Assembly (NCBI GenBank): GCA_949432885.1
Contig: CASQXY010000004.1
Coordinates: 42,900 to 106,899, forward strand
Reading direction: 5' to 3'
DNA length: 64,000 nt
From: an uncultured bacterium
Lineage (GTDB): Bacteria > Bacillota > Clostridia > Christensenellales > CAG-917
Numbering within the stretch: the stretch's first letter is position 1; the number at the start of each line of letters is the position of its first letter. A program made the position numbers and the translations under genes. This document shows positions 43,714 through 63,727 of the stretch, one piece after another. A model generated the notes under the pieces. The model did not search any database. It had not been told where the DNA came from and worked only from the letters and a program-made list of their open reading frames with translations.

Positions 43714-46512
43714 ATGGCGACTGATTACAGACAGCTTGTAGAGAATAAGCGCCAGGCAATGGTGAATGCCTTGCTTGAAAGCATTGAAAAGAATCCGACA
43801 AAATGGGAGCGTGGTTGGTATGCGCTTGACGTTCCGTATAATGCAACCACGGGTAAAAACTACAACGGACTTAATTCGTTGTTTCTTGATGCCATATCGC
43901 AGTTGCGTGGATACAAGGACGAACGTTGGGTTACGTTCAATCAGGCGAAAGAGCTCGGAGCAAGTATCAAATCTGGTGAGAAATCAAGCGATGTCTTTTA
44001 CTGGTCTCAATATGATAAAAAGACAAAGAAGCCGTTTGATCCTGATACTATTGAGGAAATGACCGAAGAGGAGTGCAAGGAGTACATAAAAGAGAATGTA
44101 CGTCCAGTGCTTAAATTCTATCAAGTTTTTAATGCTGAACAATGCAAAGATTTTCCTGAAACCACAAGAAAAAATGCAAAGTCTGATGCAGAGATTGCAA
44201 AACAGAATATCCAGATTGAAACCATAATCAAGAACAGTAGTGCGCCCATCAGCTATGATGGCAAAGACCGTGCTTATTATTCGTCGAGCACAGATAGCAT
44301 TCATTTACTGCTGATAGAGTCTTTTAAGACGTCACAAGATTATTATGCGACTGCATTGCACGAAATTGCGCATTCTACGGGACATTCAAGCCGTCTAAAT
44401 CGAGATATGAATAATATATTCGGTTCAGAGGCTTATGCGATAGAGGAATTACGTGCGGAGCTTGCGAGTGTATTTATGCAATCAGAGCTCGGCATCGATT
44501 TAGGCAATGCTGAGATTGCAAACCACGGAGCTTATTTGAAATCTTGGCTCAAAGCAGTTAAAAAAGATGTCAATGTATTTTATCGCGCCGCTGCGGATGC
44601 AGGTAAAATTTCTACATATATAAACGATAACTATCTGAAAGTGTCCAAAGGAAGAACACAAGAAGAAAATCAATCTCAAAATACCGAAGTAAAAATCAAT
44701 ACGCCACGAGATTTGTATCGTCGATATCAAGAGATAAAAGAGCGTACGCCCAACGCGATATATTTTCAGCGTGTAGGCGACTTTTATGAGGTTATGGGCG
44801 ATGATGCGCAACCGATATCGGAAGAGCTTGGATTGACGCTTACAAGCCGTGATGTAGGGCTTTCAGAGCGTGTTCCGATGATTGGCGTACCGCAACACGC
44901 CGTTGAAATCTATATTGAAAAACTGCGTGACAAATACAATGTGCTCCTTGACGGGGAAAACGAAATTAAATCTATTAAACGTCGTATGACGGCAGAGGAG
45001 CAGGAAAAGCTCGTCATCGATACAATCGAGGGGAATACGCCTTCATCTCAAAAGACAGTTAATGCCGAATGGGTGGCGCTTGCAAGTACAGTGGAACTGT
45101 CGCGCGTGCTTGAAATAGCAAAGAAATACGGTTCTGATGTCAAAGACGGTGAACTGACTATTACAGAACAGATGAGAAAGGCAAAGAAAGAAGCCGACAG
45201 TTTACAACAAGCTCAACAAGTTGAGCAAGTTCGACAAGTCGGACAAGTTGAACTTGTTATGCCGATTGAAAGCAAGATGAAAGAATACGGCAAATCAACG
45301 ATGATAAAAATGCCGAAAGGCGGAGAGTATTCTTCATTTGTGTTTTTGACGCCGACAAGATTTTTGCAAGCTGATGAGCAATCAGTAAGGTTAGTAGTTC
45401 CGTCGAATTTTGAATTTACCTTATCGAATGACGGACGTGAGCTGTCGCTCACGGGCGAGGAATTGCGCACCGTATTAGAAGGAAAAGAAATTGGCAAGAG
45501 TGCGCACCGTGTTGCACCTTCCAAGCGCAACGTAGAGAGACTGTATGCCATTAGGAGCAACACGCCGTCAGAGATGAAAGAGATGCCGAACTGGTGCGTG
45601 TATCGCACGAAGTGGAATGCAGAGAAAGGTAAGAAGGACAAATTTGTTTTATCCGTCCACGACGGGAAGTGGGCAAAAATAAATGATCGCTCGACGTGGA
45701 CGGATTTTGAATCCGCCTATAAATATGCGCTTGAAAATAATTGCGAGGGCTTGTCTTTCGCCCTTGACGGTAGCGGGATATCTTGCATTGACCTGGATAA
45801 ATGTGTATCTGCCGATGGAGAGCTGAACGACGCGGCCAAGAAACTCGCGCCTGAGTTAGAAGGCACTTATATCGAAAAAAGCGCATCAGGTAACGGGCTA
45901 CATATTTTCATTAAAGACGATATTCTTTCCAAAGATACGTTTTCAAACCGTGCGACACTTCCAAGTGGGGCGGAAATCGAGGTTTATGATAAGGCCCGTT
46001 TTATATCGATGACTGGCGACTTGTTTGACAAGTCAAAACAGCCTGACTTATCCGACAAGTCTAACTTGTCAGACAAGTCGAACAAGTTAGGCAAGTGCCC
46101 AGTTCAAACAATGAGTTGGCTCCGCCTGGCATTGGGCGCGAAAAACAAAATTACCCCATCGCAGAGCTCATCAGAGCGACGTACAGCGGATATTCGCAAT
46201 CAGAGCGACAGCGAGGTATTAGAACGTATCCGCCGTTCGAGAAAGGGCGAACAGTTCGACACGTTATATAGCGGTGGCGATATTACGGGGGATAAGAGCA
46301 GAGATGATCTGGCGTTCTTAAATACTCTTGCCTTTTTTACTGACTGTAACGAGGATCAAATGCGCCGTATTTTTGAAGGCTCAGGACGTTTTCGCCCTGA
46401 GACGAAGAATCCCGCATACGTGCAGAGGTCTATACGCAAGGCCTGCGATAGCTTGACGGTGCGTTTCGGACAGAATAGCAAACCATCAACACCTGGCAAG
46501 GGCAAAAAATAA
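43714..46512 (+). CDS. Multidomain conjugation/replication protein: ArdC-N ssDNA-binding, zincin HExxH, MutS-domain-I-like, unknown, PrimPol and PriCT (932 aa)
   Basis: I placed the start at ATG 43714 (RBS gagg). The ArdC N-domain is WERGWY...TGKNYNGLNSLFL...RWVTFNQAKELGASIKSGEK. HEIAHSTGH lies at about 44359-44385. The MutS_I-like segment is TPRDLYRRYQEIKERTPNAIYFQRVGDFYEVMGDDA...VPMIGVPQHAVEIYIEKL (about 44701-44950). The PrimPol segment is WCVYR...GLSFALDGSGISCIDLDKC...GNGLHIF...EVYDKARFISMTG (about 45589-46020). The PriCT-like tail is SEVLERIRRSRKGEQFDTLYSGGD...DDLAFLNTLAFFT. Confidence 0.85.
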   Translation: MATDYRQLVENKRQAMVNALLESIEKNPTKWERGWYALDVPYNATTGKNYNGLNSLFLDAISQLRGYKDERWVTFNQAKELGASIKSGEKSSDVFYWSQYDKKTKKPFDPDTIEEMTEEECKEYIKENVRPVLKFYQVFNAEQCKDFPETTRKNAKSDAEIAKQNIQIETIIKNSSAPISYDGKDRAYYSSSTDSIHLLLIESFKTSQDYYATALHEIAHSTGHSSRLNRDMNNIFGSEAYAIEELRAELASVFMQSELGIDLGNAEIANHGAYLKSWLKAVKKDVNVFYRAAADAGKISTYINDNYLKVSKGRTQEENQSQNTEVKINTPRDLYRRYQEIKERTPNAIYFQRVGDFYEVMGDDAQPISEELGLTLTSRDVGLSERVPMIGVPQHAVEIYIEKLRDKYNVLLDGENEIKSIKRRMTAEEQEKLVIDTIEGNTPSSQKTVNAEWVALASTVELSRVLEIAKKYGSDVKDGELTITEQMRKAKKEADSLQQAQQVEQVRQVGQVELVMPIESKMKEYGKSTMIKMPKGGEYSSFVFLTPTRFLQADEQSVRLVVPSNFEFTLSNDGRELSLTGEELRTVLEGKEIGKSAHRVAPSKRNVERLYAIRSNTPSEMKEMPNWCVYRTKWNAEKGKKDKFVLSVHDGKWAKINDRSTWTDFESAYKYALENNCEGLSFALDGSGISCIDLDKCVSADGELNDAAKKLAPELEGTYIEKSASGNGLHIFIKDDILSKDTFSNRATLPSGAEIEVYDKARFISMTGDLFDKSKQPDLSDKSNLSDKSNKLGKCPVQTMSWLRLALGAKNKITPSQSSSERRTADIRNQSDSEVLERIRRSRKGEQFDTLYSGGDITGDKSRDDLAFLNTLAFFTDCNEDQMRRIFEGSGRFRPETKNPAYVQRSIRKACDSLTVRFGQNSKPSTPGKGKK
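45208..45256 (+). repeat. 9-nt-period CAAG/CTTG array 1 (6 units), inside the ArdC-PrimPol CDS, CAAG at codon position 1
   Basis: CAAG at 45208, 45217, 45226, 45235 and 45244, and CTTG at 45253. The array is translated as QQ-VEQ-VRQ-VGQ-VEL. Confidence 0.8.
46020..46095 (+). repeat. 9-nt-period CAAG/CTTG array 2 (9 units), inside the ArdC-PrimPol CDS, CAAG at codon position 3
   Basis: CTTG 46020, CAAG 46029, acag 46038, ctta 46047, CAAG 46056, CTTG 46065, CAAG 46074, 46083 and 46092. The array is translated as DKSKQPDLSDKSNLSDKSNKLGK. Confidence 0.8.
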
Positions 46513-46810
46513 AAGGATAGTTTGCGGAATCCATTTATTTTTTGCGGTTGAGAACCTAAATCAATTCAATCCGCGCAACAACCTCGCCAGGCGTTGCCAG
46601 GCGAGGGCAAAAAACAACGGATCGCCTTGGGCGCCCATTATTTTTTGCGACTGAGAACACAAGCAGGATAAGACGGTGTGCCACACAAGCCGAAAATCGA
46701 CTTTTAATACAAAGTATTACGTGGTGGCACACCTTGGAAGTTTAGGTGCACCAGTATGGCACACCTAAACTTGGACAAATCGGAAACCGATTTTCAGAGG
46801 CGCTACTGCG
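46513..46810 (+). promoter_or_regulatory. Candidate oriT / relaxosome assembly region upstream of the accessory and relaxase genes
   Basis: A 25-nt direct repeat occurs at 46531-46555 and 46634-46658 (ccatttattttttgcggttgagaac / cccattattttttgcgactgagaac). There is an inverted repeat cctcgcc...ggcgagg (46582-46606). The motif TGGCACAC occurs three times, one copy inverted (46675-46686, about 46726, about 46758). An 11-bp inverted repeat pairs aagtttaggtg (46738-46748) with cacctaaactt (46762-46772). Confidence 0.35.
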
Positions 46811-46821
46811 CCAGGAGGGAT

Positions 46822-47277
46822 ATGAAAACACAAGATAAGAAAAATAATTCGTTCCGCATTCGTGTGTATGATGACGACCTTCTGACGTCGATATATGAAC
46901 TTGCAGAGCTGAAAGAATTTGCTTCGATGAACGAGCTTATCTGTACCGCATTGAGTTTCGGCATTGAAAAAATGTATATCGAGCGCGGAAAACGTAAGGC
47001 GTTTACAGCAAAAGATGTGCAGGAGAGCGGGGACGTGAAACTAAACGAACTTATCAAGCGGAGCAAAGCTCAAACAACGACACTTGATGACGTATTTGTG
47101 ATGCTCAACGTAGTTGAAATGCTGATGTCTACGCTGTATAACGCCAAACTATTGGATCTAAAAGGCGAGAGCGTGAGCAGTGAAATGATAGAGAGCGGAT
47201 ATTTATCTGAGTTGCCAGAGAATATACGGCGAGTCAAAGATAGCCTGGTAAAACGCCTGGCTAAAAAGGAGAGCTAA
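46822..47277 (+). CDS. Putative ribbon-helix-helix relaxosome accessory protein (151 aa)
   Basis: I placed the start at ATG 46822 (RBS aggaggg). The N-terminal beta-strand-like SFRIRVYDDDLL is followed by helices. The gene sits immediately upstream of the relaxase with no gap. Confidence 0.5.
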   Translation: MKTQDKKNNSFRIRVYDDDLLTSIYELAELKEFASMNELICTALSFGIEKMYIERGKRKAFTAKDVQESGDVKLNELIKRSKAQTTTLDDVFVMLNVVEMLMSTLYNAKLLDLKGESVSSEMIESGYLSELPENIRRVKDSLVKRLAKKES

Positions 47278-48579
47278 ATGCCAAAAGCGTTATTTAATAT
47301 TGCCTATACATTGCCGAGTGCTCCCTCGTATTTGAAGGGGAATAAAAGGGCGGAGTATATGGCCCGTCGAAAGTTCTACAACTTGACGAGCTCGTATAAC
47401 TTTTTCTCATACGCATTAAACGGCGAAAAGGTAGTTAAAAATGCCAATGCAGAGCATTATTTTACGAGAGAGGGAGAAAATACGGGGTTGTTCAATCTGA
47501 ACGGCCAATTAAATGAGAATCAGATCCGAGAATTGAAATCGGAGTTGAAAAAGACGGAATCTATTATCTGGCACGGCTTTATCAGTTTTGATGCAGAACT
47601 CAATGAGGCATTTAGCACACAAGAAAATGCGGTTAAGTTTATGCGTCAAACGTTCGGCGCGTTTTTGGATCGTACACACTTGAAGCGCGATAATGTTGAG
47701 CTCTTCGCAGCATTGCACGAAGATACGGACAATAGGCATATCCATTTTGAATTTTTTGAAAAACAGCCTAAACGACGCGATAAAAGTGGAGAGCTTTGCT
47801 ATACAAAGAAGGGCAAAATCGATGCGCGAGCGATTGACAATTATCTGGTGAGCGCAAATATGCACTTGGATGAGCACGGCGAAGAATATTATACGGCTCG
47901 TAACAAGGCGATCGAGCAGTTGAATATTGCGCGAAAAGACGTAGCAGGCGGAATTATCCGCAATTCTACGCTTAATCGTGAACTTAATAATCTTATTCGT
48001 AGCTTGCCCGCAACAGGAAGATTGCAGTATGGCTCGGTAAATATGGCGGAATTGCGCCCTCAAATTGATTTAGTAGCAGATTTGCTTATCCAAACAGATC
48101 CAAAAACTCAAAAAGCGCAAGAGGAAATGATTTATCAACTGGCACGAGTAAAAGAGAACGTCGTTGAGCTCGTAAAGAATAATAAGCTCGCTTACGTTGA
48201 TAATCGCAGAATGAGCAAGGAAGAGATTGACAAGGCTATGGGCGACAAGCCTGGAATAGATATGCGCTACGTAGATTTGAACAATGTCGATTATTTTGAG
48301 CGCTTACAAGAAGACTACAAGACGCGTGTCGGCAACGTAGTATTAGGGCTTTGTAAAGACTTAAAGAAAGGCGACCTAAGAGATAGCAAGCGCAGATACG
48401 GTGTAAACGACAAGCATTGCAAGATAAATGCCAAAAATCGACGTCATAAGAGGGCGAACGCCATACGGGATATACAAAACTTACTGTTCGAGCTTTGCAA
48501 AGGAGAGCAGGCGAATTTCTTAAAGACAGTGCAACAAAATGAGAAAGAAAACGAATACGGGAGAGCATCAAACGGCTAA
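47278..48579 (+). CDS. Conjugative relaxase (histidine-triad motif HEDTDNRHIH), MobL/MOBP-like
   Basis: ALHEDTDNRHIHFEF matches the HxDxDNxHxH motif III of MOB relaxases. The N-terminal region is Tyr-rich. The gene lies between the accessory protein and the T4CP. Confidence 0.6.
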   Translation: MPKALFNIAYTLPSAPSYLKGNKRAEYMARRKFYNLTSSYNFFSYALNGEKVVKNANAEHYFTREGENTGLFNLNGQLNENQIRELKSELKKTESIIWHGFISFDAELNEAFSTQENAVKFMRQTFGAFLDRTHLKRDNVELFAALHEDTDNRHIHFEFFEKQPKRRDKSGELCYTKKGKIDARAIDNYLVSANMHLDEHGEEYYTARNKAIEQLNIARKDVAGGIIRNSTLNRELNNLIRSLPATGRLQYGSVNMAELRPQIDLVADLLIQTDPKTQKAQEEMIYQLARVKENVVELVKNNKLAYVDNRRMSKEEIDKAMGDKPGIDMRYVDLNNVDYFERLQEDYKTRVGNVVLGLCKDLKKGDLRDSKRRYGVNDKHCKINAKNRRHKRANAIRDIQNLLFELCKGEQANFLKTVQQNEKENEYGRASNG

Positions 48580-50831
48580 TGAATAAGTTGAGCAAGGGTA
48601 AAAAAATAATAATCACGATTGCAGTAATGATTGTCGGATCGATAATTGTTTTGTTTGCGCTTGCCTTTTTAGGTTCTATTATTTTCAAAAATTCGATACT
48701 CGATTTGCTGAAAAATTGGAGGTTATATGTCATTTGGCTTGTCTTAATAATAATCGGTGTCTGTGCACTTGTTTTTGATTTCCGCGTCAGAGGTAGTAAG
48801 CGTGTGTTAAAGGTCAATTCAGAACTTGAAGATTCGCATTTTATGACTAAATCTGAGATAGCCAAAAACGAGGGATATACAGTAACAAAATTAAGCGAGT
48901 TGCACAAAGTGTCGGACGGTGTTCCTATATTTGCCGAACAGAAAGGGAAGGACATTTATGTCGTTCTTAAAAATCCGCAACATACCGCTATCATAGGCGC
49001 AACGGGTACTGGTAAGACATCGGCGTTTATAGATCCGACGATAGAGATTTTATGCAGAACGAAGACAAAGCCATCTATGGTTGTGACGGATCCAAAAGGG
49101 GAGTTGTACACGCACCACGGAGAGAAGCTCAAAGAGCAGGGCTATAAAGTGAGCGTGATAGATTTAGCAGACGTGTACCACTCTACCAGGTGGAATCCGT
49201 TTAATGACATCTGGCGGAAGACAGAGCGCATTAAAAGTTGTGAGATAGTACAGCGCAAGGGGAAGTATATTTGCGACAAGCAAGTGTTTTTGACAATGAA
49301 TGCAGCCGAGGACGCGAAAAAATCTGTGCAGGCAAAGCTGAAAGATGAGATTTTTGTGGATTTGCAAGATCTGATTTATACGATGTGTCCTATTGAAAAT
49401 AAAAACGAAAGCAGTTGGGAAAAAGGAGCACGTGATTTAATCCTGGCACTTGCCGTAGCGTTTTGGGAAGACGTTTACGACGGATATATGCCGAGAGAAA
49501 AGTTTAATCTTTATAATTTATATCGTACGGTTAGCGATTATGCAAAAGGAGACTGCGATGAATTGAGGGCATATTTTGCTACGCGCTCACCTAACTCGAA
49601 GACACACGGACTATCCAATACGGTGCTTGTGGCCGAGGATAGAACGTTATCGTCCTATTTGACCGACGTATCGCAATACTTCACTTGGATGGCGGACACG
49701 GGAATTTCGGCGCTAACGAGCGGAAACGAAATTGAGTTTAATGATTTCGACGAAGTCCCGAACGTACTTTTTCTTAAAATTCCCGATGAAAAAGAAAACC
49801 GTCATAAGCTCGTAAGTTTGTTTATAACGCAAATGTATAAGGCACTTGTCGAAAAGGCTACGGACAATATGACGAGCGGTAAAACGGAGTCCCAGGAACT
49901 TTTACGCAATACATATTTCATTATGGACGAGTTCGGAAACTTGCCGACATTTCACCGTATGGACAGTATTGTTACTGTCGGTCGCTCTCGTAAAATTTGG
50001 CTTATGCCAGTGGTGCAAGACTTTAATCAGCTTGATAACAAGTACGGAAAAGAAGTAGCAGCGATTATTAGGAGTAACTGTAATACGCAGATATTTATAG
50101 GTACGAATGACGATAACACAAGAAAAGAGTTTTCCGATATGTGCGGTAAAAAGAAAGTCAAGCAGGTTAGTTACTCGGAGAATAACGATATGTCGGTCTC
50201 TACGTCTGCGCAGAGCGTTCCGCTCATTTATCCGAACGAGCTTGAACATCTCAATGATCCTGCTAATGGGGTAATGGGGAATGTGATAATAGCAACACTT
50301 GGTAATTATCCGATAAAGGCGAAATTCACGCCATTTTTCCAGGCGCAGGAAGTTTACGGTGCAACTCCTGCGACGCTTAAACCTGGTGATTTTATTGAGT
50401 TTGATGAGGATGCTGTTCATTACGACATTATGCGTTTTACGACGTATAAGAACGTTGAGGAGCAATTACTGACATTATCTAACGACACGCTTGATTCAGC
50501 GCTCGCTATACAAGACGAACAAGCTCGACAAGTCGGGCAAGTTCAACAAGCCGAGCAAGAAGCAAAAAGGAAGTTGGCTATCAAAATGCTTGCCGACGTG
50601 CAGAAACGGTTAGTGCAGTTAAAGGGCAAAATCCCTAATGAAATGTTTGAGCGTCTAAACGATAGCGATATCAAAAACAAATTGGTCATTCTCAATGATC
50701 TTGCCGATGACGCGGCCACGCAAGGTAATTTTATGTTGTCTGCGTTATGCGATCAGCTAAGGACATTTGTACTTCACAGGTGTTTTGTGCCTGAGCAAAT
50801 AGAAAAAGTCGATATGGAGTGTAAGAGGTGA
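48579..50831 (+). CDS. Type IV coupling protein (VirD4/TraG-like)
   Basis: Two N-terminal TM helices, Walker A IIGATGTGKTSAFIDP, TDPKGELY and Walker B YFIMDEFGNLP. The start overlaps the relaxase stop by 1 nt. Confidence 0.85.
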   Translation: MNKLSKGKKIIITIAVMIVGSIIVLFALAFLGSIIFKNSILDLLKNWRLYVIWLVLIIIGVCALVFDFRVRGSKRVLKVNSELEDSHFMTKSEIAKNEGYTVTKLSELHKVSDGVPIFAEQKGKDIYVVLKNPQHTAIIGATGTGKTSAFIDPTIEILCRTKTKPSMVVTDPKGELYTHHGEKLKEQGYKVSVIDLADVYHSTRWNPFNDIWRKTERIKSCEIVQRKGKYICDKQVFLTMNAAEDAKKSVQAKLKDEIFVDLQDLIYTMCPIENKNESSWEKGARDLILALAVAFWEDVYDGYMPREKFNLYNLYRTVSDYAKGDCDELRAYFATRSPNSKTHGLSNTVLVAEDRTLSSYLTDVSQYFTWMADTGISALTSGNEIEFNDFDEVPNVLFLKIPDEKENRHKLVSLFITQMYKALVEKATDNMTSGKTESQELLRNTYFIMDEFGNLPTFHRMDSIVTVGRSRKIWLMPVVQDFNQLDNKYGKEVAAIIRSNCNTQIFIGTNDDNTRKEFSDMCGKKKVKQVSYSENNDMSVSTSAQSVPLIYPNELEHLNDPANGVMGNVIIATLGNYPIKAKFTPFFQAQEVYGATPATLKPGDFIEFDEDAVHYDIMRFTTYKNVEEQLLTLSNDTLDSALAIQDEQARQVGQVQQAEQEAKRKLAIKMLADVQKRLVQLKGKIPNEMFERLNDSDIKNKLVILNDLADDAATQGNFMLSALCDQLRTFVLHRCFVPEQIEKVDMECKR
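50511..50559 (+). repeat. 9-nt-period CAAG array 3 (6 units), inside the T4CP CDS, CAAG at codon position 1
   Basis: CAAG at 50511, 50520, 50529, 50538, 50547 and 50556. The array is translated as QDEQARQVGQVQQAEQ. Confidence 0.8.
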
Positions 50832-50835
50832 GTAT

Positions 50836-56800: not shown

Positions 56801-58017
56801 AGAAAAATTACAGTTTTATCATTAGAGACTATGTCGGCAATGAAACGGCGTTCACTGTAAACCTTGACAGATCCGTCAAGTACGAAATCAAAGGCAGTTA
56901 TGTTACTGATAAAGACGGAGCCATTATATCGAGGTACGGTGTATCAGTTCAAGCGTTAGAAACCTTTGCGCGATTTACTGTAAATGACGAGGTTAATCAG
57001 AGCGTTATTTCGGGGGAACGTATAACGATTGAAGGAGAATATAAGACATTCATTGAAGATATGCAGGGCAATACGATTGCTCTTATTATCCGTATCGATA
57101 CAACAGCCCCGATTATAAGCGCTTCGATCGATAACGGCGGAATTGCTAATAAGGAAGTTCAAATCGGAATTGACGGTGCGACGAGCGCATATTATCGAGA
57201 TTCCGCAGGAAACATTATAAATATTGACGGTTCTTGTGTTATCTCAAATAACGGCTCGTATACGGTTATAGCGAAAGATTTGGTAGGCAATGAAAGCTCG
57301 TATAAGTTTTCAATCGACAGCGTGGTAGACGTGCGCACACAGCCTCTTATTAAATCTGGACAGATAATTACGGAGCAAGTAAGTTTTAGTTTTAATGAAA
57401 GGGTAACAACTGAACTTTGGTTCAACAATGAGCCGATAGAGTTTTTATCTAATTTGTCCGATGCAGGCAGTTATAGATTAAGAGCGGTAGACGAGCTTGG
57501 CAATGCTTATGAAGTTGAGTGGATCATAATCGCGCCGATTGCAAATTCTTATGATTTTGAAATCCCGAAAGACTATCAAGCACGTTTGATTAAAGATGAC
57601 AACGTTGTATCGATTTCAAATTCCGTTAAATTGAGTAAAGACGGGTTGTATACGCTTGAACTCGCAAAAGACGACTTTACATACAGTATTGAGTTTACTG
57701 TTGATACCGTTGCACCTACGGTCACAATAACACAAGAAAAAAATCAAGTCACGTTTTCAAAGGCAGATAAGGAAGGCGTTGTTTATACGCTCTATTTGAA
57801 TGGAGAGGAAATCAAGTGCTCTCCCAATTCGACGTTTACAGAGAGAGGCAATTACAGGTTAATAGTGACCGACGAGCTCGGCAATTTTAACTCTTACGAG
57901 TGGGAACTCGATTATATCAACACCTATGGAATAGTTGTGATTGTTATTGCGTCTGTGACGGTATTAGGAATTGTTATAGGTGTTCTGATTTACAGGCGAC
58001 GTCAGTCTGTCAGATAA
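50836..58017 (+). CDS. Giant surface protein with about 14 Ig-like repeats (2393 aa), N-terminal signal/TM and C-terminal TM anchor; putative mating adhesin
   Basis: RBS aggtga. The N-terminus is KVTILILFVVMIFLIVFS. There are fourteen domain-boundary motifs of the form (I/V)D(K/T)xxP(T/S). The C-terminus is GIVVIVIASVTVLGIVIGVLIYRRRQSVR. The gene lies between the T4CP and the T4SS membrane genes. Confidence 0.8.
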   Translation: MKRAIKDAGKVTILILFVVMIFLIVFSTKPIEIAYAATVITTDLKFVSASVYWYQNQKTSSGVYGGTDIIPSIPYASLRSNGTLNYHNGKYYTDNSSLTAFYNGMSNNWRGYSNGETSGANWGKISINSESAEAGQYCADKVGNYGSQAFANLVGKIELSCELKNGLNQITFKLQQGSHKVFWMKQDTATGVVDVIYDSTFPVITINGITNGYAINSNLKISVSDTYLDKITLDGNVINNNSSVSRSSLSDGVHTVVAVDYAGNVSAQTFTVDNTAPTISKSITSDYTNNTFTVTTKDEHSTGLLYKTPTSTDWISVNNDTITINKTNGDGLYQFKGVDIVGLTSEVISITLDTIRPSLTGQSDGAYTNKPFTIKAVDTNFGELYYKRPNGEFAKAEGSSYAIVAGSANGIYEFYCLDKAENRFPESGSFKVNFDTVAPTLTGVTNGAFYKDKVAVKWDKSVLFNSSDAVTAKYSLSTSGAFPTSSATAFVSGTTFNAEGNYRVSFCDKAGNEKIYTFSIDKQAPTLTLDGANSKNFSKTSMKATWLKTIGGVSAQFMNSNDSITAKYAVSNSGTFPKVADKNYLSGSVLTQEGNYLIVITDKAGNERSYQFTIDKTAPTLSLSGLVSGLSYNGSKSGFSANWVTTVGGVISQRVNDNDVITVKYSRNSTTIFPTSANTVYTRNAVLGNEGYYLLQIADSAENMSEYRIVVDKTAPTVSRISEYLNYGFDFEATDLHNATILYKFNDGQQRSDRSGKVTITCDKANYGIWEFYAEDELGNRSEKQSIHLFYRSDFGNLENVKNGYKVPTWFTVALPNKIYTDIAGTYSFRTREDALSFAIAKEWEYRVEKLANGWSYVNIGNESVSQIYTDKTALDTAVLKYATAYVSERKEMQLGNNTYPNPTDKNGQICADALTQQSLSYPGILSAYKDLPLYLIRHDFMFSQPEVGVAGNTRKVQIKYLANDFAVAESELVELAYNQKFDMFVSENALMQGYYLVVESDLCGNVQCYVIYLDKETPTLSAVVTNGMGEKQTVEFNNEYVSQNENVMLYVSLEMQSLIDNIDEFSMICITGRKFEDKVFVVGDELPTLALENGYYGRYTINVYDRSLNYISFNVRIAGEAPYLTHTSLNNEIRCTFTVNYDTANNGISELQIFKVSYDGVYSEMLQDSDGNPISAATLSYVIRVGGKYVVRFTDIFGRVIETDPLFYMKGLPSGILKGVKEGGITNRDVSFEFSEGNNIYLYAYVDKEWIRYDEVLSLVEKEGYSIASITANADTSLIYKFFLYVENDLNLFTEYRFEVDCIAPTVSIASVDGKAITPEEVTTSSFAVNWDESNVTARFYNTNDKLGQLGESVYQKNTIITKAGTYVFTVRDVVGNETIFTITLDNMVSFTIDGSYSMLEDGSYISKYDLVLTVTERTSQFVCTANNGMNIVNGGTISADGSYIFEISDAFGNSVRLVIIIDKLPPVPCVLTVSDKVLNMNSATNEAFKVSCDEPNVSITIKRGAQYQNYDTNEVLSEEGIYTFRMVDRMNNAVTFTITIDKSVDYKINGTYLQLDDGSYISRYSLSVTGRENFSSFSAISESGVSFALGEKIDVEGIYNVAIIDYVGNETVIKLIIDKTPPSLKVTAKDGSEVQSGKTNQSFSVSCDEQGSTIKVARTSGSSGTTYIGEMLSERGIYYFRVTDVIGNEAIYSVEIDLNVGFNVKGVYKINQSGAYVSNTSLAIELTENVNSFSVRNDNEELSIKPNEEITQENVYQVLIVDLAGNEQEITLIIDKTAPTFQIFTKSGATAEPNQIVKEGFSVKCEEEDAVIKISTNGTKFSIYDGALCTIDNTYYFEISDFVGNVVAFTVEIDLGIEYVVRGNYIRDGNRYSSRTSIILEVKESLLNFDVQSSNGYVFSIGDTVDREGEYKIRIVDLAGNVAEVEIIIDKTPPIPTISSLDGVSILPNTATRLPFTVSSEKGAIITFSTSSVGKYEQYTGTVFEEEKNYSFIIRDYVGNETAFTVNLDRSVKYEIKGSYVTDKDGAIISRYGVSVQALETFARFTVNDEVNQSVISGERITIEGEYKTFIEDMQGNTIALIIRIDTTAPIISASIDNGGIANKEVQIGIDGATSAYYRDSAGNIINIDGSCVISNNGSYTVIAKDLVGNESSYKFSIDSVVDVRTQPLIKSGQIITEQVSFSFNERVTTELWFNNEPIEFLSNLSDAGSYRLRAVDELGNAYEVEWIIIAPIANSYDFEIPKDYQARLIKDDNVVSISNSVKLSKDGLYTLELAKDDFTYSIEFTVDTVAPTVTITQEKNQVTFSKADKEGVVYTLYLNGEEIKCSPNSTFTERGNYRLIVTDELGNFNSYEWELDYINTYGIVVIVIASVTVLGIVIGVLIYRRRQSVR
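54739..57099 (+). repeat. Five diverged super-repeats of about 468 nt (about 156 aa, two Ig-like modules each) within the giant surface protein
   Basis: The boundary motif codons (gat-aaa/gat-tgc/gat-aca in xIDKxxP) lie at 54739, 55225, 55693, 56164, 56629 and 57097. The spacings are 486, 468, 471, 465 and 468 nt. Confidence 0.65.
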
Positions 58018-58073
58018 AACAACAGCGTTAAGCTGATTATATAGAAAAACTTTTGAGTAAAGGAGAATTTATT

Positions 58074-58370
58074 ATGTTTAATTTTATGCTCGCAGCGACG
58101 AATGAGTTTAACGAATTTGGCGAAGTATTGTCAGGTCTGTTCGACCAAATGTTTACCCCTCTGATATCGATAGCAGTTGCATTGTGCGCGATATGGGGAT
58201 TGTATCTCGGTCTTAAATTCTGGAAGAGCGGTGGTGATGAAAATAAACGCAAGGAAGCAAAGAATGCGGTATGGATGTTTGTTATCGGTATTATCGTCAT
58301 ATTCGTTGTTGCCGTTGCCGCCCCGTTACTTATCGGCGCTTTAACAAATTGGATGCAAACCCAGGGATAA
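58074..58370 (+). CDS. Small two-TM protein, VirB2/TrbC-pilin-like (98 aa)
   Basis: I placed the start at ATG 58074 (RBS aggag 58061-58065). Two hydrophobic helices are separated by the charged loop KFWKSGGDENKRKEAKN. The gene sits directly upstream of the VirB6-like and VirB4 genes. Confidence 0.45.
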   Translation: MFNFMLAATNEFNEFGEVLSGLFDQMFTPLISIAVALCAIWGLYLGLKFWKSGGDENKRKEAKNAVWMFVIGIIVIFVVAVAAPLLIGALTNWMQTQG

Positions 58371-58383
58371 AGAGGAGTAGGAA

Positions 58384-60201: not shown

Positions 60202-60209
60202 GGTGAGGT

Positions 60210-62897
60210 ATGAGAATAATTCCTAAAAAATCAAAGGTCAATCCTACGGTGTGGCGTGACTTTACTTTGTTTGATATCTTATTTGCGTTCTGTCTTGGTA
60301 TTATCGCTTTTATTATCGGAATGAGCAATTTCAAATACAAGTGGCCATTGTTGCTCGTTTATGTAAGCGTATCCATTATGCTGTTTTTATCGGATAATGG
60401 TGAACGTATGTATCAAGACTTAATCTACATACTTCGATTTGTGGTTTCAAAGAAAAAATACACAAAAGAAGATAAACGCAACAATATCAGCGTTCTCATT
60501 CCGTTTAACAGTATAGAAGCGGACGGAGTTGTAAATTATGGAGATTATCTTGGTGCTATTATTTCGATTGGCAGCGTAGAATTTGGGTTGCTTGACGAAA
60601 TAGAACAGGATCGCAGAATATCTGTATTTGCCTCGATGTTAAATGGTTTGGGTGAGAACTTTGTAGCACAGCTCGTTAAGCTCGACAGACCGATAAACTA
60701 TGATGACGTTGCGAGCAGGCTGTTTAGCAAGCTCAAAGCGGCGCAAGATTCAAAAGATGAAGCGAGGATTGAAATTCTTAAAAGTAGACTAAATCAAATA
60801 GACAGCCTTAATAATGTTGCCAAGCAATATCGACCTTATTATTATTTTGTTATTTTTGATCTCGATAATGACAAAGAATCTCTTTTGAAACAGGTCGATT
60901 TTATTCGTGCGAGTTTGGATAGGGCGGGATTGCCGACATCGATGCTCGATCAAAAAGAAGTGGCAGTGTTCTTTAAGTATTGTTATAAACGCGATTTTGA
61001 TGAGCGAGACATAGACGAGGTTGATGATTTAGCAGAATATGTTAAGCCGAATGCTATTAGGTTTAAGCAAAATGCTTGCCTATGCGACGACGTCTATTCG
61101 TTTACGTGCGCCATTTCAGATTATCCTCTTGGTGTTGGCAATGCCTGGGGTGCAGGTATCTTTAATATCGACAACACAAAAGCAATACTTACTATTAAAC
61201 CAGTTGAAAAGGACAAAGCGATTAAGCGTATAGATAAGGCGGTCGTAGAACTTAGTACTCGCCACGGTAGCGGAAAGATATCAGAAGCCATATCGCAGGA
61301 AACGCACGTCGAAACAATGGCAGAGCTCGCGCAACAATTACAAAATGAAAATGAGCTTTTATTTGACTGCTGTATTACAATTACTGGATATAACAATACA
61401 CCTGAAAAGGACTCGGCGTTCCGAAAGAATATAAGAAGACAGATACAGTCCAACGGATTTAAGGTAAATATGCTACGTTGCCGTCAGTTTGACGGATTCG
61501 CAACGTCGAGTATCTCGCGCCGTATGGCGTTGCGTAGCCAGGAGATAGGCATTAACTCCGAGAGCCTTGCGGCGATATTTCCTTTTGTTTTTACGTCGAT
61601 AATTGAGCCTGACGGAATGACTATTGGATACGAGTTTTATCCAGTGGTTTTAGACATTTGGAAGCGTGGGGCGCAATACATAAATTCAAACATTGTTGTT
61701 TTAGGCAAATCTGGATCGGGTAAATCGTTTTTTGCAAAGACGTTGATTTCTCTTGTGTATTCCGATAACTCGAAAATTTTTATACTTGATCCAGAAAACG
61801 AGTATCTACATTTATGTCGGAATGTCGGTGGTCGATTTATCGACGTCGGAAACGCTACGGAAGGGCGTCTTAATCCGTTACATATTTATCAGATCTTGAC
61901 CGATGACGGAAATACGGCAAGTTCGGAAGCCGTATTTAGTGCACATTTAAGATTTTTGGAGAGTTTTTTTGCAATAACGTTAAAGGGAATAACGTCCGAT
62001 GCGCTTGAAGAACTCAATAATTTATTAGGCAAGCTCTATAAGAAGAAAGGTATCGATGAGACGACGGACTGTTCAAAGTTCGCGCCAGAAATGTTCCCCA
62101 CGTTTGACGATTTGAGTGAACTTGTCGAAGAGGAATTTGAATCGGAGACGTCGCCGATGCGCAAGGATAACCTTGATCGGGTGCGAACGTACGTTGCCAA
62201 GTTTGGAAGCGGTGGTAGATTTTCCAACTTATGGAATGGCCCGTCAACGTTGACGACGGACGAGCGTATGATTGTTTTCAATTTTCAGTCGTTGTTTGCA
62301 GCCAAGAATAATACTGTTGCAAATGCGCAAATGCTACTTGTTACTCGATATCTCGACCAACAGATAATAAACATCAGAGAGCAAAACCGTCATCTCGATA
62401 TTCCTGTACACCCGTTTCTTGTTTTTGATGAGGGTTATATGTTCGTTGATGAAGACAACCCGATTGCACTGGACTTCATATTCTTAGAATATAAACGTAT
62501 TAGAAAATATGAGGGCAGTATTGCTTTGTTAACTCAAAACTTATCTGATTTAGTGGGCAATTCAGCGATCGTTCAGAAGACGACGGCAATTATCAATAAT
62601 GCGCAATACTCGTTTATATTTTCGCTCGCTCCGGGAGATTTGCAAATCTTAACCGATCTATATCGCAATGCAGGTGAAATTAACGACGTGGAACGCAATC
62701 AGATTGCGACGGCAATGAATGGGCAGTGCTTTGCAATAAGCTCGATAAGCGAGCGCACGAGCTTTCAAGTAGTGGCGAGCGACGCAGTATATACATTATT
62801 CGATATTCCGAACGGTATGAAACTGATAAAAGAAGGGACACCTATTAGTCCCGAAAATAAACACAAAAAAGAAAAGGAGAATGAACAAAATGATTAA
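60210..62897 (+). CDS. VirB4-type conjugative ATPase with N-terminal TM hairpin (VirB3-like fusion)
   Basis: Two N-terminal TM helices, Walker A VVLGKSGSGKSFFAKT, Walker B FLVFDEGYMF. 895 aa. Confidence 0.85.
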   Translation: MRIIPKKSKVNPTVWRDFTLFDILFAFCLGIIAFIIGMSNFKYKWPLLLVYVSVSIMLFLSDNGERMYQDLIYILRFVVSKKKYTKEDKRNNISVLIPFNSIEADGVVNYGDYLGAIISIGSVEFGLLDEIEQDRRISVFASMLNGLGENFVAQLVKLDRPINYDDVASRLFSKLKAAQDSKDEARIEILKSRLNQIDSLNNVAKQYRPYYYFVIFDLDNDKESLLKQVDFIRASLDRAGLPTSMLDQKEVAVFFKYCYKRDFDERDIDEVDDLAEYVKPNAIRFKQNACLCDDVYSFTCAISDYPLGVGNAWGAGIFNIDNTKAILTIKPVEKDKAIKRIDKAVVELSTRHGSGKISEAISQETHVETMAELAQQLQNENELLFDCCITITGYNNTPEKDSAFRKNIRRQIQSNGFKVNMLRCRQFDGFATSSISRRMALRSQEIGINSESLAAIFPFVFTSIIEPDGMTIGYEFYPVVLDIWKRGAQYINSNIVVLGKSGSGKSFFAKTLISLVYSDNSKIFILDPENEYLHLCRNVGGRFIDVGNATEGRLNPLHIYQILTDDGNTASSEAVFSAHLRFLESFFAITLKGITSDALEELNNLLGKLYKKKGIDETTDCSKFAPEMFPTFDDLSELVEEEFESETSPMRKDNLDRVRTYVAKFGSGGRFSNLWNGPSTLTTDERMIVFNFQSLFAAKNNTVANAQMLLVTRYLDQQIINIREQNRHLDIPVHPFLVFDEGYMFVDEDNPIALDFIFLEYKRIRKYEGSIALLTQNLSDLVGNSAIVQKTTAIINNAQYSFIFSLAPGDLQILTDLYRNAGEINDVERNQIATAMNGQCFAISSISERTSFQVVASDAVYTLFDIPNGMKLIKEGTPISPENKHKKEKENEQND

Positions 62898-63210
62898 AGC
62901 ATTTATTCAAGGTAACTTGACAAACGACGTTGAATTGAAGACGGTCGGAGACAATGAAAAGTCCGTGGCAATATTCACGGTGGCGTCAAATCGCCCAGGG
63001 CGTGATGGTGCAGATTATCTGCGCGTAGAGGTATGGGGAGCAAATGCTAAGAACTGCGCTAAATATCTGAAAAAGGGCAGTGGTGTTTGCTGTGCAGGCG
63101 ATTTGCAAATTGATACCTTTACAAAAGACGATGAACGTAAAATTGCCGTAAAGCTCGTAAATACGCAAGTTGAATTTACCGATCGCAAACCGCAAAGCAT
63201 TATAGAGTAA
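62890..63210 (+). CDS. ssb: Single-stranded DNA-binding protein (short, OB fold only)
   Basis: IKAFIQGNLTNDVELKTVGDNEKSVAIFTVASNR...YLRVEVWGANAKNCAKYLKKGSGVCCAGDLQIDTF is an SSB OB-fold pattern. I prefer ATG 62890 (10 nt after aggag) to 62881. Confidence 0.8.
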   Translation: MIKAFIQGNLTNDVELKTVGDNEKSVAIFTVASNRPGRDGADYLRVEVWGANAKNCAKYLKKGSGVCCAGDLQIDTFTKDDERKIAVKLVNTQVEFTDRKPQSIIE

Positions 63211-63216
63211 AGGATC

Positions 63217-63252
63217 TGCACGTCAGTGTATTTCATTGACGTGCAAATTTTT
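63217..63252 (+). terminator. Intrinsic terminator after ssb
   Basis: tgcacgtca (63217-63225) pairs with tgacgtgca (63237-63245), followed by aattttt. Confidence 0.7.
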
Positions 63253-63255
63253 AAC

Positions 63256-63297
63256 TTTGTCTGGCTTGTCGAGCAAGTTCGACAAGTCGGACAAGTT
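63256..63297 (+). repeat. 9-nt-period CTTG/CAAG array 4 (5 units), intergenic, between the ssb terminator and the next RBS
   Basis: tttg 63256, CTTG 63265, CAAG 63274, 63283 and 63292. Positions 63271-63297 are identical over 27 nt to 45223-45249 (gagcaagttcgacaagtcggacaagtt). Confidence 0.8.
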
Positions 63298-63305
63298 AAA
63301 GGAGA

Positions 63306-63518
63306 ATGGCAATGAATATGGAAGAAATTACGTCGATAATTTTTGAGACTCTTAAACAAGATGATCGGGTGCTCAGCCTTAAAATGATGATGGGGAACAA
63401 AGGAATACAGGTATGTACTGTCGATGGAGAGATTTACAACGTTGGGGGAAGGAGAACACAAAGAAAATTCGGTGGCAAGATTGATTATGTCAAGCAATCA
63501 AATGATGGGGATTATTAA
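63306..63518 (+). CDS. Hypothetical small protein (68-70 aa)
   Basis: RBS aaaggag at 63298-63304. ATG 63312 has better spacing than 63306. I recognise no motif. Confidence 0.45.
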   Translation: MAMNMEEITSIIFETLKQDDRVLSLKMMMGNKGIQVCTVDGEIYNVGGRRTQRKFGGKIDYVKQSNDGDY

Positions 63519-63727
63519 ACTTTGTCACCGTTGGGGAACACAATATTGATTTCTAATTCGCAATCCATCGCATTTACTAATCGCTCATATTCCGAGAGCT
63601 TAAAGTTGTTTGCGATCATTTTGCCTGAAAGATTTGCACGAGATTGTGCAGTTAGTTCAGCAAGCTGTGATTGTGTAATACCTTTTTTTGCCATTGCTAT
63701 TTTTAGTTTCTTAGATAAATCAATCAT
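63515..63727 (-). CDS. XRE-family helix-turn-helix regulator (70 aa)
   Basis: LKIAMAKKGITQSQLAELTAQSRANLSGKMIANNFKLSEYERLVNAMDCEL is an HTH_3 pattern. It converges on, and overlaps by 4 nt, the upstream small ORF. Confidence 0.75.
   Translation of the reverse strand: MIDLSKKLKIAMAKKGITQSQLAELTAQSRANLSGKMIANNFKLSEYERLVNAMDCELEINIVFPNGDKV

Follow-up and report, generated by a model that had tools for sequence, protein, structure and literature searches.

The MetJ metboxes are tandem 8-bp palindromic boxes on which ribbon-helix-helix (RHH) dimers bind side by side; they repeat with an 8-bp period in sets of 2-5 and serve as chromosomal repressor operators in non-coding DNA. In the type Ib system of pCXC100, the RHH protein ParB binds cooperatively to an unbroken series of nine 9-bp repeats; a dimer sits on every 9 bp and makes contact with 18 bp, and the partner is a Walker-type ParA (PMC3074162). 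The pCXC100 repeats are non-palindromic (AGNTGGAAA) and form a single, non-coding array (PMC3074162). Omega, the ParB of pSM19035, is an RHH protein that requires at least four contiguous heptads, in any orientation, and doubles as a global regulator (PMC9499535). Polyvalent proteins of conjugative elements are defined by an ArdC-N and MPTase core to which variable extra domains are joined (Iyer, Burroughs, Aravind 2017; PMC5512222).

The 64-kb stretch of DNA analysed here (the window) holds four arrays of a 9-bp unit that resemble each of these systems in part. As in pCXC100, the units are uninterrupted (3-12 per array), an 18-bp block is over-represented, and the element family encodes ParA with a small RHH-like protein. 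Unlike pCXC100, the unit is built on a symmetric 8-mer, and at least four arrays are dispersed over the element, mostly in coding sequence. Omega and its parS sites share the short contiguous units without spacers, the mixture of direct and inverted copies and the dispersal of several arrays on one replicon. However, omega units are 7-bp heptads in promoter regions, whereas those described here are 9 bp long, lie mostly in genes and are not placed at recognisable promoters. Metboxes are likewise palindromic 8-bp boxes in tandem, but here the period is 9 bp and most copies are coding. Finally, the gene that hosts arrays 1 and 2 encodes a polyvalent protein, with ArdC-N, a zincin-like MPTase and variable effector domains in one polypeptide, and its architecture varies among relatives. 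In a term search of the polyvalent-protein article (PMC5512222), neither 'linker' nor 'low-complexity' occurred; judged against that article, a DNA-level repeat at polyvalent-protein domain junctions appears not to have been described previously. The best explanation, to which we give an even chance, is that the arrays are cooperative binding sites for the ParA-linked RHH protein of the element.

Four arrays in an integrated conjugative element

All four arrays lie inside an integrated conjugative element, of which ~22 kb falls in the window (Table 1), and the ~41 kb of host DNA in the window contains none. They are the sole chains in the window when a chain is taken as at least three C(AA|TT)G units at period 9; a scan of periods 5-14 over the 64 kb gave no other C(AA|TT)G chains. 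In 500 shuffles no chain exceeded three units, and PWM array scores were 44-77 for the real arrays vs at most 23 for shuffled sequence. Each array consists of 4-9 contiguous units in strict 9-bp register, without spacers. An earlier note on this DNA had reported the four arrays, and all are present. Its counts of 6, 9, 6 and 5 units are right in that every unit is in register, but two units in array 2 and one in array 4 are degenerate. The note was also correct that arrays 1 and 4 share a sequence (45223-45249 and 63271-63297, the last 27 nt of array 4); the match is exactly 27 nt long and continues no further in either direction.

Table 1. Arrays, host genes and neighbouring features (positions in the window)
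Feature	Position	Strand	Details
Polyvalent protein gene	43714..46512	+	Hosts arrays 1 and 2; ArdC-N, MPTase-PolyVal, MutS_I, PrimPol, NrS-1 HBD
Array 1	45206..45259	+	6 units of 9 bp (5 CAAG, 1 CTTG); core span 45208-45256; phase 1, QQAQQVEQVRQVGQVELV
Array 2	46018..46098	+	9 units in a single 9-nt register (5 CAAG, 2 CTTG, 2 degenerate: ACAG, CTTA); core span 46020-46095; phase 3, DLFDKSKQPDLSDKSNLSDKSNKLGKC
Type IV coupling protein (T4CP) gene	48579..50831	+	Hosts array 3
Array 3	50509..50562	+	6 CAAG units; core span 50511-50559; phase 1, QDEQARQVGQVQQAEQE
SSB gene	62881..63210	+	Upstream of array 4
Terminator-like hairpin, then T-run	63217..63245	+	Immediately before array 4
Array 4 single-strand hairpin (predicted)	63249..63301	+	Units 1 and 2 pair with 5 and 4; stem reaches the Shine-Dalgarno
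Array 4	63254..63298	+	Non-coding; degenerate TTTG (63256), then CTTG, CAAG, CAAG, CAAG; 4 good units at 63265-63295
70-aa gene	63306..63518	+	Product without assigned function; AAAGGAG ribosome-binding site abuts array 4

Pfam matches in the polyvalent protein are ArdcN, MPTase-PolyVal, MutS_I and NrS1-1 HBD; its start was placed by homology with P0001, and the mechanical ORF call begins at 43630. Array 1 marks the junction of the MutS_I cassette and the PrimPol part, and array 2 occupies the loop that separates the PrimPol catalytic core from the NrS-1-type helix-bundle domain. In the T4CP alignment, array 3 falls in a hypervariable linker from the core to the conserved C-terminal domain. 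As the note had read them, the C of CAAG is the first base of a codon in arrays 1 and 3 but the third base in array 2, and array 4 sits between the terminator-like hairpin and the AAAGGAG of the next gene.

A symmetric unit constrained at the DNA level

Each unit comprises an 8-mer with two-fold symmetry and a single spacer base, RRCWWGYY+N. The consensus proposed earlier, CWWGTYNRA, is better written RR-C-WW-G-YY-N. Base frequencies are mirrored across the unit: position -1 (A.67, G.32) vs position +4 (T.64, C.27), and position -2 (A.49, G.48) vs position +5 (C.57, T.34). Translation gives Q-[V/A]-[E/G/R/K/Q] in phase 1 and [D/N/G/S]-[K/L]-[S/L/P] in phase 3. Unit orientation is free wherever the peptide permits, with CAAG:CTTG ratios of 84:4 in phase 1, 9:5 in phase 3 and 17:7 in non-coding DNA. 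Moreover, 11 of the 44 arrays contain the two-unit block RACAAGTCGGACAAGTT, vs ~1.3 expected, an excess that fits an 18-bp contact.

Arrays with this same consensus recur in related Christensenellales/Clostridia elements of 31% to 51% GC, in each of the three phases and at non-coding positions that are conserved, whereas unrelated genes lack them. Of the 44 non-redundant arrays in our census, 31 are in phase 1, four in phase 3, one in phase 2 and eight in non-coding DNA. That most arrays are within coding sequence is unusual for centromeres and counts against binding by the RHH protein. Across 29 independent Q-[VA]-x runs from 15 loci, the Gln codons are CAA 125 times and CAG twice, the second (Val/Ala) codon ends in Y 116 times vs R 11 times, Gly is encoded by GGA/GGG in 28 cases and by GGT/GGC in none, and Arg by CGA/CGG/AGA. 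The position of array 4 is conserved in six related loci. Between the window and L202, 9 of its 45 positions differ, vs 1 of 40 in the adjacent hairpin, and none of the array changes disturbs the pattern, not even a flip from GACAAGTCG to GACTTGTCG, which involved no indel. Fixed synonymous sites, the use of all three phases and the conserved non-coding spots together indicate selection on the nucleic acid and not on the peptide, as the note had proposed; neither of the two observations that, according to the note, would refute a DNA-level role is made, since the arrays are present and constrained in relatives and missing from unrelated genes.

Could the arrays nevertheless be a minisatellite, with (Q-V/A-x)n as a useful flexible linker and no sequence-specific function for the DNA? 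Slippage, gene conversion between arrays and template switching at inverted units would then homogenise the copies by concerted evolution, with occasional spill into other frames or intergenic DNA. Several observations favour this. Indels of one 9-nt unit separate arrays 1 and 2 of the window from those of its 84%-identical relative L001, a whole-unit copy-number change of the kind seen in slippage-type coding repeats, and permissive linkers acquire and lose arrays. For array 2, the native in-register seeds from which it grew can be seen in relatives without the array. Unit flavours are lineage-specific and blocks are shared within one element, as in the three arrays of L367 with a common flank and the 27-mer of arrays 1 and 4, and the Gln-Val phase predominates. 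However, slippage-type coding repeats keep to a single reading frame and leave synonymous sites free, whereas these arrays occupy three phases and eight non-coding sites. Transitions are abundant in the unit flanks (T/C at +4 and +5, A/G at -1 and -2), some of them non-synonymous, whereas the synonymous CAA-to-CAG transition is almost absent even at 51% GC. In addition, the R/Y-class symmetry of the unit holds in every context, non-coding arrays included; non-coding arrays stay at the same spots across lineages with pattern-preserving changes only; and operator-like boxes with the same core are found in related par operons. We regard the minisatellite explanation as unlikely. Our pattern scans also found ordinary coding tandem repeats (collagen-like G-Q-V, QAQ, SKS), which share the 9-nt period and in some cases have CAAG-containing units. 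Unlike the arrays, these are near-perfect copies in a single frame, and they lack the symmetric degenerate unit, multi-phase or non-coding copies and any tie to one mobile-element family.

Cassette boundaries and the array 4 hairpin

The arrays coincide with domain-cassette boundaries of the polyvalent ArdC-PrimPol protein. The cassettes between the MPTase and PrimPol domains are variable, and they are array-bounded in every architecture compared: the homology blocks shared by the window and L286 abut at the single run of L286, and those shared with L285 are interrupted at the J1 run and again immediately before the J2 run. Array A5 borders an integration module that is represented by a UPF0236 DDE gene or, alternatively, by a tyrosine integrase. 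These placements, together with the 27-nt identity, which is about the minimal length for homologous pairing, are what would be seen if the arrays had been selected as in-frame homology patches, in 9-nt steps, for swapping or deleting domain cassettes and gene modules. We consider such selection distinctly improbable. Exchange by homology needs identity and not a symmetric motif, and the AA/TT flips and pattern-only conservation lower homology. Recombination of a phase-3 or phase-2 array with a phase-1 array could not preserve the frame. Any dispersed direct repeat would, moreover, be expected to give rise to cassette boundaries as a by-product. The exchange between arrays 1 and 2 that the note envisaged would shift the frame because their phases differ; the cassette gain and loss that we see is between phase-1 arrays. 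Next to the T4CP array there is no module to exchange, because the C-terminal domain is conserved. This array is present in the window, L001, L135 and L365 and absent in L285-287 and L361, and this gain and loss counts against the RHH protein as binder.

The arrays might instead act as single-stranded nucleic acid, either as hairpins for priming or loading on a transferred strand (PrimPol, SSB) or as RNA structures that control translation; array 4, for example, could sequester the ribosome-binding site, with array 1 competing for its left arm. Array 1 is identical to the right arm of array 4. Array 4 has a predicted hairpin energy of -30 kcal/mol (z = -8), and array 2 also folds much better than its shuffles (z = -5 to -6.6). 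The array 4 hairpin is retained in four orthologues, where seven one-sided changes keep pairing through G-U, and non-coding arrays usually have CTTG units first and CAAG units after them. On the other side, two-sided compensatory changes affect 0 of 22 array 4 pairs, a count of low power because it comes from four sequences only, and the L202 flip breaks two pairs. The A5 orthologues have no common hairpin (z = 0 to -3), and phase-1 arrays, with nearly all units CAAG, fold weakly. Folding energies of -14 +/- 5 kcal/mol are reached even by synthetic arrays sampled from the unit model; thus, folding is largely a by-product of the symmetric unit. A gathering-threshold Rfam search of 41500-64000 returned tRNA only and no curated RNA family at the arrays. 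The priming signal for PrimPol or SSB suggested in the note finds no support, as the known sites of NrS-1-type PrimPols (GTG, TTTGGTTA) are unrelated to the arrays. A single-stranded role of the arrays seems highly improbable to us. Since array 4 folds into a conserved hairpin over the ribosome-binding site, at least that copy may act as RNA, possibly as an extra role, and this counts against the RHH explanation.

A ParA-linked RHH protein as candidate binder

Which protein might bind the arrays as double-stranded DNA? Relatives carry a pair of genes for a CbiA/MipZ ParA and a ~90-aa RepB-RCR_reg (RHH-like) protein, the fold of the latter being called from a weak Pfam hit and inspection of the sequence alignment. 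In this element, the par genes presumably lie just beyond the right edge of the window, as judged from relatives that share the SSB/70-aa region. In tblastn searches, RHH homologues were found only in array-bearing loci and ParA in both array-bearing and array-free loci, a co-occurrence that is confounded by relatedness; small proteins also drop quickly below tblastn detection, and the outgroup partner proteins align at only 18-26%. A screen within 10 kb of the polyvalent gene found no gene family specific to array-bearing loci.

In L362 the RHH gene ends 43 nt before a six-unit non-coding array, and in L199, L202 and L287 arrays are most densely clustered 1.3-2.2 kb downstream of it. Within the array-bearing clade, no array is directly upstream of parA. 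The two array-free outgroup relatives with the closest ParA have CAAG/CTTG boxes in mixed orientation at that place (six in L139; four in L148, of the form ACAAGT/ACTTGC), spaced exactly every 10 bp and not 9. Like type Ib centromeres, the arrays are runs of about four or more short repeats that directly adjoin one another. The centromere-type dispersed array raised as a candidate in the earlier note gains indirect support from RHH co-occurrence, the outgroup boxes and the pCXC100 precedent. The binder is a different matter: in place of the three proteins that the note named, we favour the RHH protein linked to ParA, whose gene would lie beyond the window.

That the arrays are bound, by which protein and to what biological end are matters of inference, and they would fit together as follows. 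The arrays would be tandem double-stranded DNA sites for a dimeric protein encoded by the element itself, most likely the small RHH centromere-binding protein that adjoins a Walker-type ParA in close relatives. One dimer would occupy each 9-bp unit, with neighbouring dimers binding side by side and cooperatively, in the manner of pCXC100 ParB on its 9-bp repeats and omega on its heptads, and the outcome would be several nucleoprotein patches on the element that serve partition of the excised circle and possibly omega-like regulation. Since each 9-bp unit spans three codons and encodes a polar linker that proteins can tolerate (Q-[V/A]-x or D/N-K/L-S), arrays could become established in the linkers between domains and in protein tails, and not only in intergenic DNA. 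As a side effect, in-frame direct repeats would provide crossover points at which the polyvalent protein acquires or loses whole domain cassettes. Inside genes, the DNA motif dictates the amino-acid sequence of flexible protein linkers.

The arrays and their setting in the conjugative element

An integrated conjugative element takes up the right third of the window, with host genes for an M18 aminopeptidase, TldD/PmbA and YidD to its left. We found all four 9-nt-period CAAG/CTTG arrays within this element and none in 41 kb of host DNA; the earlier note had proposed counting this periodicity, and within the window it is confined to the element. Inspection of the window sequence bears out the placing of the arrays in that note, the codon phases given for the coding ones, and the 27-nt match between arrays 1 and 4 (45223-45249 and 63271-63297), which is exact and has zero extension on either side. 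When the 64 kb was scanned for C(AA|TT)G chains of at least three units at period 9, only arrays 1-4 were recovered, and there were no chains at any other period from 5 to 14. Chains of more than three units arose in 0 of 500 shuffles. Moreover, the arrays score 44-77 under a position-weight model, compared with at most 23 in shuffles, and this model detected no weaker arrays elsewhere in the window.

Features of the element and its left edge, in window coordinates
Feature	Position	Description
Array 1	45208-45256	5 CAAG and 1 CTTG units, single 9-nt register
Array 2	46020-46095	9 units, 2 of them degenerate, single 9-nt register
Array 3	50511-50559	6 CAAG units, single 9-nt register
Array 4	63265-63295	4 good units; a further degenerate TTTG unit at 63256
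tRNA	41906-41993	at the element's left edge
Direct repeat, 32 nt	41816-41847 and 41895-41926	at the tRNA; copies 84% identical
HTH_36 replication-initiator-like protein		element gene; TACGTCAAAAATTG repeats follow
TACGTCAAAAATTG repeat family	43206-43333	five copies, 17-35-bp spacing, some as inverted pairs
Polyvalent protein		element gene; ArdC-N, MPTase, MutS_I, PrimPol, NrS-1 helix bundle
MobL relaxase		element gene
Coupling protein (T4CP)		element gene
VirB4		element gene
SSB		element gene
2393-aa protein	50836-58017	weak BiPBP_C match only
ssb 'terminator' hairpin	63217-63245	arms ACGTCA...TGACGT

Within the polyvalent protein, array 1 lies at the junction that precedes PrimPol and array 2 in the loop joining the PrimPol core and the helix bundle; array 3 lies in the hypervariable linker of T4CP, ahead of its conserved C-terminal domain. 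Array 4 stands, as previously claimed, between a terminator-like hairpin that follows ssb and the next ribosome-binding site, which belongs to a 70-aa gene. This gene has only four homologues, never fused to another domain, and array 4 is therefore not an obvious relic of gene fission. The gene for the 2393-aa protein, though much the longest in the element, is array-free; its family occurs in 9 of 9 array-bearing loci examined versus 22 of 71 array-free loci.

The element probably integrated at the tRNA, with the direct repeat beside it as its attachment repeat. The TACGTCAAAAATTG repeats, directly 3' of the HTH_36 gene and 5' of the polyvalent gene, are likely iterons, an origin, or oriT, and the arms of the ssb hairpin are similar to them. 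A 173-aa protein encoded upstream of the relaxase (46756-47277) had no match in PDB, Pfam or PHROG, and its structure prediction was unusable (pLDDT 37). Other small genes of the element encode an XRE protein (63515-63727, minus strand), a 72-aa protein (43494-43712) and a 129-aa protein (42487-42876).

The repeat unit and the constraint upon it

The consensus built from 102 units is RR-C-WW-G-YY-N. Its flanks mirror each other, position -1 (A.67, G.32) answering position +4 (T.64, C.27) and position -2 (A.49, G.48) answering position +5 (C.57, T.34). The unit is thus a two-fold-symmetric 8-mer with one spacer base, a form that explains the linker peptides. In phase 1, with the C of CAAG at codon position 1, CAA-GYY-NRR is translated as Q-[V/A]-[E/G/R/K/Q]; in phase 3, RRC-AAG/TTG-YYN gives [D/N/G/S]-[K/L]-[S/L/P]; and phase 2, read ACA-AGT-TCA, occurs in a single relative (L286 4478-4504). 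In phase 1, where a CTT codon would mean Leu, CAAG outnumbers CTTG 84:4; the ratio falls to 9:5 in phase 3 and to 17:7 in non-coding arrays. Orientation bias tracks peptide constraint, the pattern expected of a symmetric recognition element. The Spo0A '0A box' is TGTCGAA; it arises only where the unit is CAAG-TT-C-GA and is not the conserved feature.

The polyvalent protein has many homologues in MAGs of Christensenellales and other Clostridia, and about 100 of the best 120 have Q-[V/A]-x runs at domain junctions. The arrays are limited to one clade. More distant relatives (~40% identity) lack these arrays and show no other 9-nt periodic motif in their stead, and specificity switching was rejected on this ground. 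A census of 44 non-redundant arrays, with one assignment corrected by hand, placed 31 in phase 1, four in phase 3, one in phase 2 and eight in non-coding DNA.

Codon use was tallied, without bias, over 29 distinct peptide runs from 15 loci. Gln is encoded by CAA 125 times and by CAG twice, against near parity in the background of the same loci (CAA share 41-55%). The second codon of the runs ends in Y in 116 cases and in R in 11, Gly is GGA/GGG 28 times and never GGT/GGC, and no Arg codons other than CGA, CGG and AGA are used. The consensus is unchanged from 31% GC (L367) up to 51% GC (L361). Flank positions carry many transitions, some of them amino-acid-changing (V/A, E/G, K/R), and their abundance beside the near absence of silent CAA-to-CAG changes is the strongest sign of selection on nucleic acid. 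The comparison of synonymous sites in relatives suggested by the earlier note thus finds these sites fixed inside the runs, and its central inference, that selection acts on the DNA and not on the peptide, is well supported by this codon ratio, the three phases and the non-coding copies.

Array 4 occupies the identical spot in six related loci of two lineages. Between the window and the related locus L202, 9 of 45 array-4 positions differ, versus 1 of 40 in the adjoining hairpin; the motif is intact at every change, and one unit is flipped from GACAAGTCG to GACTTGTCG without an indel. In L199, L202 and L287 a 150-172-aa gene is followed, after its stop codon, by a second non-coding array, A5; in L362 a third lies 3' of a small ribbon-helix-helix (RHH) gene. 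An extra RNA role for array 4 is possible, as it is strongly self-complementary (z = -8; array 2, z = -5 to -6.6) and four orthologues keep its hairpin, which extends as far as the Shine-Dalgarno sequence. However, the hairpin shows no compensatory changes and loses two pairs to the flip in L202, A5 orthologues have no common hairpin, and synthetic arrays generated from the unit model already fold to -14 +/- 5 kcal/mol. Folding thus comes largely with the symmetry of the unit. The arrays have no Rfam match. The suggestion that they are a priming signal for PrimPol is not supported, as the known NrS-1-type template sites GTG and TTTGGTTA are unrelated to the array unit.

Scans of viral contigs with (CAAGY N4)x4 and (RRCAAGYYN)x4, and of metagenome contigs with GACAAGTCGGACAAGTTR, were uninformative for the array family. 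The matches are mostly unrelated simple coding repeats (SGT, QAQ, GKP, collagen-like GQV), together with one poxvirus-like genome. The GACNNGTCC-type 9-nt repeats of metagenome contigs (L289, L290, L300, L313 and others) translate as collagen-like Gly-Gln-Val/Gly-Pro-Val triplets and are false positives for any CAAG-every-9 pattern search. The poxvirus-like giant virus (IMGVR_UViG_2757320477_000001-3; contigs L119, L221, L241, L244, L247, L226, L237, L227, L229 and L273) has VETF, poxvirus poly(A) polymerase and kinase and a GC content of ~30%, and its intergenic DNA is saturated with 9-bp-period RACWWGTYN-like arrays of up to 61 units in both orientations. Their unit shape is that of the element's arrays but the biology is unrelated, and the two are probably convergent. 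A megablast search with the element found nothing in plasmid or phage collections. A database search with the linker peptides returned zero scored matches, presumably because the query is compositionally biased and of low complexity.

A candidate link to partition

Which protein might bind the arrays? Gene order in close relatives continues past the window with SSB, a 67-aa gene and, further on, a ParA of the CbiA/MipZ type. Next come a ~90-aa RepB-RCR_reg protein (RHH-like) and a PBECR4 protein with arrays in its tail, then a small gene, A5, an integration module (UPF0236 or tyrosine integrase), HTH_36 and the polyvalent protein. By tblastn, the RHH protein is found in array-bearing loci only; ParA turns up in these at 83-100% identity and also, at 27-46%, in array-free loci. 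A six-unit non-coding array starts 43 nt after the end of the RHH gene in L362, and in other lineages the densest array cluster is 1.3-2.2 kb downstream of that gene. Within 10 kb of the polyvalent gene, no small-protein family proved to be confined to array-bearing loci in a co-occurrence screen.

Immediately upstream of parA, the two array-free relatives whose ParA is most similar have operator-like boxes, in mixed orientation, that share the array core. In L139 (12104-12162) these are CAAG, CAAG, CTTG, CAAG, CAAG, CAAG at an exact 10-bp period, and in L148 (3768-3808) ACAAGT, ACTTGC, ACAAGT, CCAAGT, also at a 10-bp period. The boxes are candidate par operators or centromeres whose core is common to the 9-bp arrays. 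The small partner proteins of these loci align weakly to the in-group RHH protein, and alignment inspection shows a candidate C-terminal beta-strand-plus-two-helix (RHH-like) segment in all of them.

There are published precedents for the array geometry seen here. ParB of pCXC100 is an RHH dimer on nine uninterrupted 9-bp repeats, with one dimer per 9 bp and 18 bp contacted by each (PMC3074162). The omega protein of pSM19035 requires at least four contiguous heptads, in free orientation, and has several dispersed arrays (PMC9499535). The two-unit block RACAAGTCGGACAAGTT, present in 11 of 44 arrays where ~1.3 would be expected, fits an 18-bp contact. We propose that a dimeric protein of the element would bind RRCWWGYY units cooperatively at 9-bp spacing, the ParA-linked RHH protein being the most likely candidate; the arrays would be tolerated within genes as linkers, and cassette crossover would be a secondary effect. 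This predicted mechanism is the best supported, and we give it no more than about an even chance, since the window does not reach the par genes and relatedness confounds the co-occurrence of RHH protein and arrays. We class the arrays as a putative RHH-type repeat array that lies within coding sequence and shapes it. We found no earlier description of them: a keyword search on linker repeats of ArdC/PrimPol proteins in conjugative elements gave nothing, a term search of the polyvalent-protein paper (PMC5512222) met neither 'linker' nor 'low-complexity', and pCXC100 was the sole precedent to come out of a search on 9-bp repeats and centromeres.

Domain cassettes and the meaning of the arrays

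What lies between MPTase and PrimPol varies among relatives by entire domain cassettes, including MutS_I, AAA_28, PF20054 and unknown domains, and every cassette is bounded by arrays. Homology between the window's element and L286 forms two blocks that meet at the single run of L286, and homology with L285 breaks at the J1 run and again 7-10 residues ahead of the J2 run. Orientation flips and pattern-only conservation are of no help to homology, in-frame recombination of phase-3 with phase-1 arrays is impossible, and the T4CP array has no exchangeable module beside it. We therefore disfavor cassette exchange as the primary purpose of the arrays, and read the boundaries as a consequence of dispersed direct in-frame repeats.

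Arrays differ by whole units between 84%-identical relatives. Array 2 arose from native in-register seeds, and its difference between L001 and the window is a one-unit indel, not a Lys-to-Leu flip. Three arrays lie inside one 1602-aa polyvalent protein of L367 (2793-2846, 3807-3851 and 4347-4400) with the 5' flank and initial units (…ACACAAGARAAACAATCTCAACAAGTTGA…) common to all, reflecting either block copy of array and flank or homogenization within the gene. The homologue P0004 (531 aa, 100% identical) was considered as an assembly break at array 1, but by length arithmetic it extends ~18 aa beyond the array, and its end appears to be a plain contig end. In some relatives the module between the array cluster and HTH_36 is a UPF0236 (ISLre2-like DDE) gene; in another, its place is taken by a tyrosine integrase (L199 15100-16459, L202 16131-17486 and L287 4550-5911 versus L362 1501-2397), which suggests interchangeable integration modules with an array at the border.

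For annotation, the Q-V/A-x low-complexity linkers are here more than protein features, and (RRCWWGYYN)n is a simple signature with which to spot this element family in metagenomes. More tentatively, and with doubt outweighing confidence, we suggest that the element may have spread centromere/operator repeats into its own genes, one symmetric motif serving as docking site, linker template in any frame, and in-frame cassette crossover point. Recombination at in-frame 9-bp arrays would offer a mechanism for the shuffling of polyvalent anti-defense domains in conjugative elements of gut Clostridia. If this is true, partition or regulatory binding-site arrays can reside in coding sequence and set linker peptides, a DNA-binding code has a direct hand in protein architecture and in modular evolution, and the element family would be a clean natural case of overlapping DNA and protein codes.
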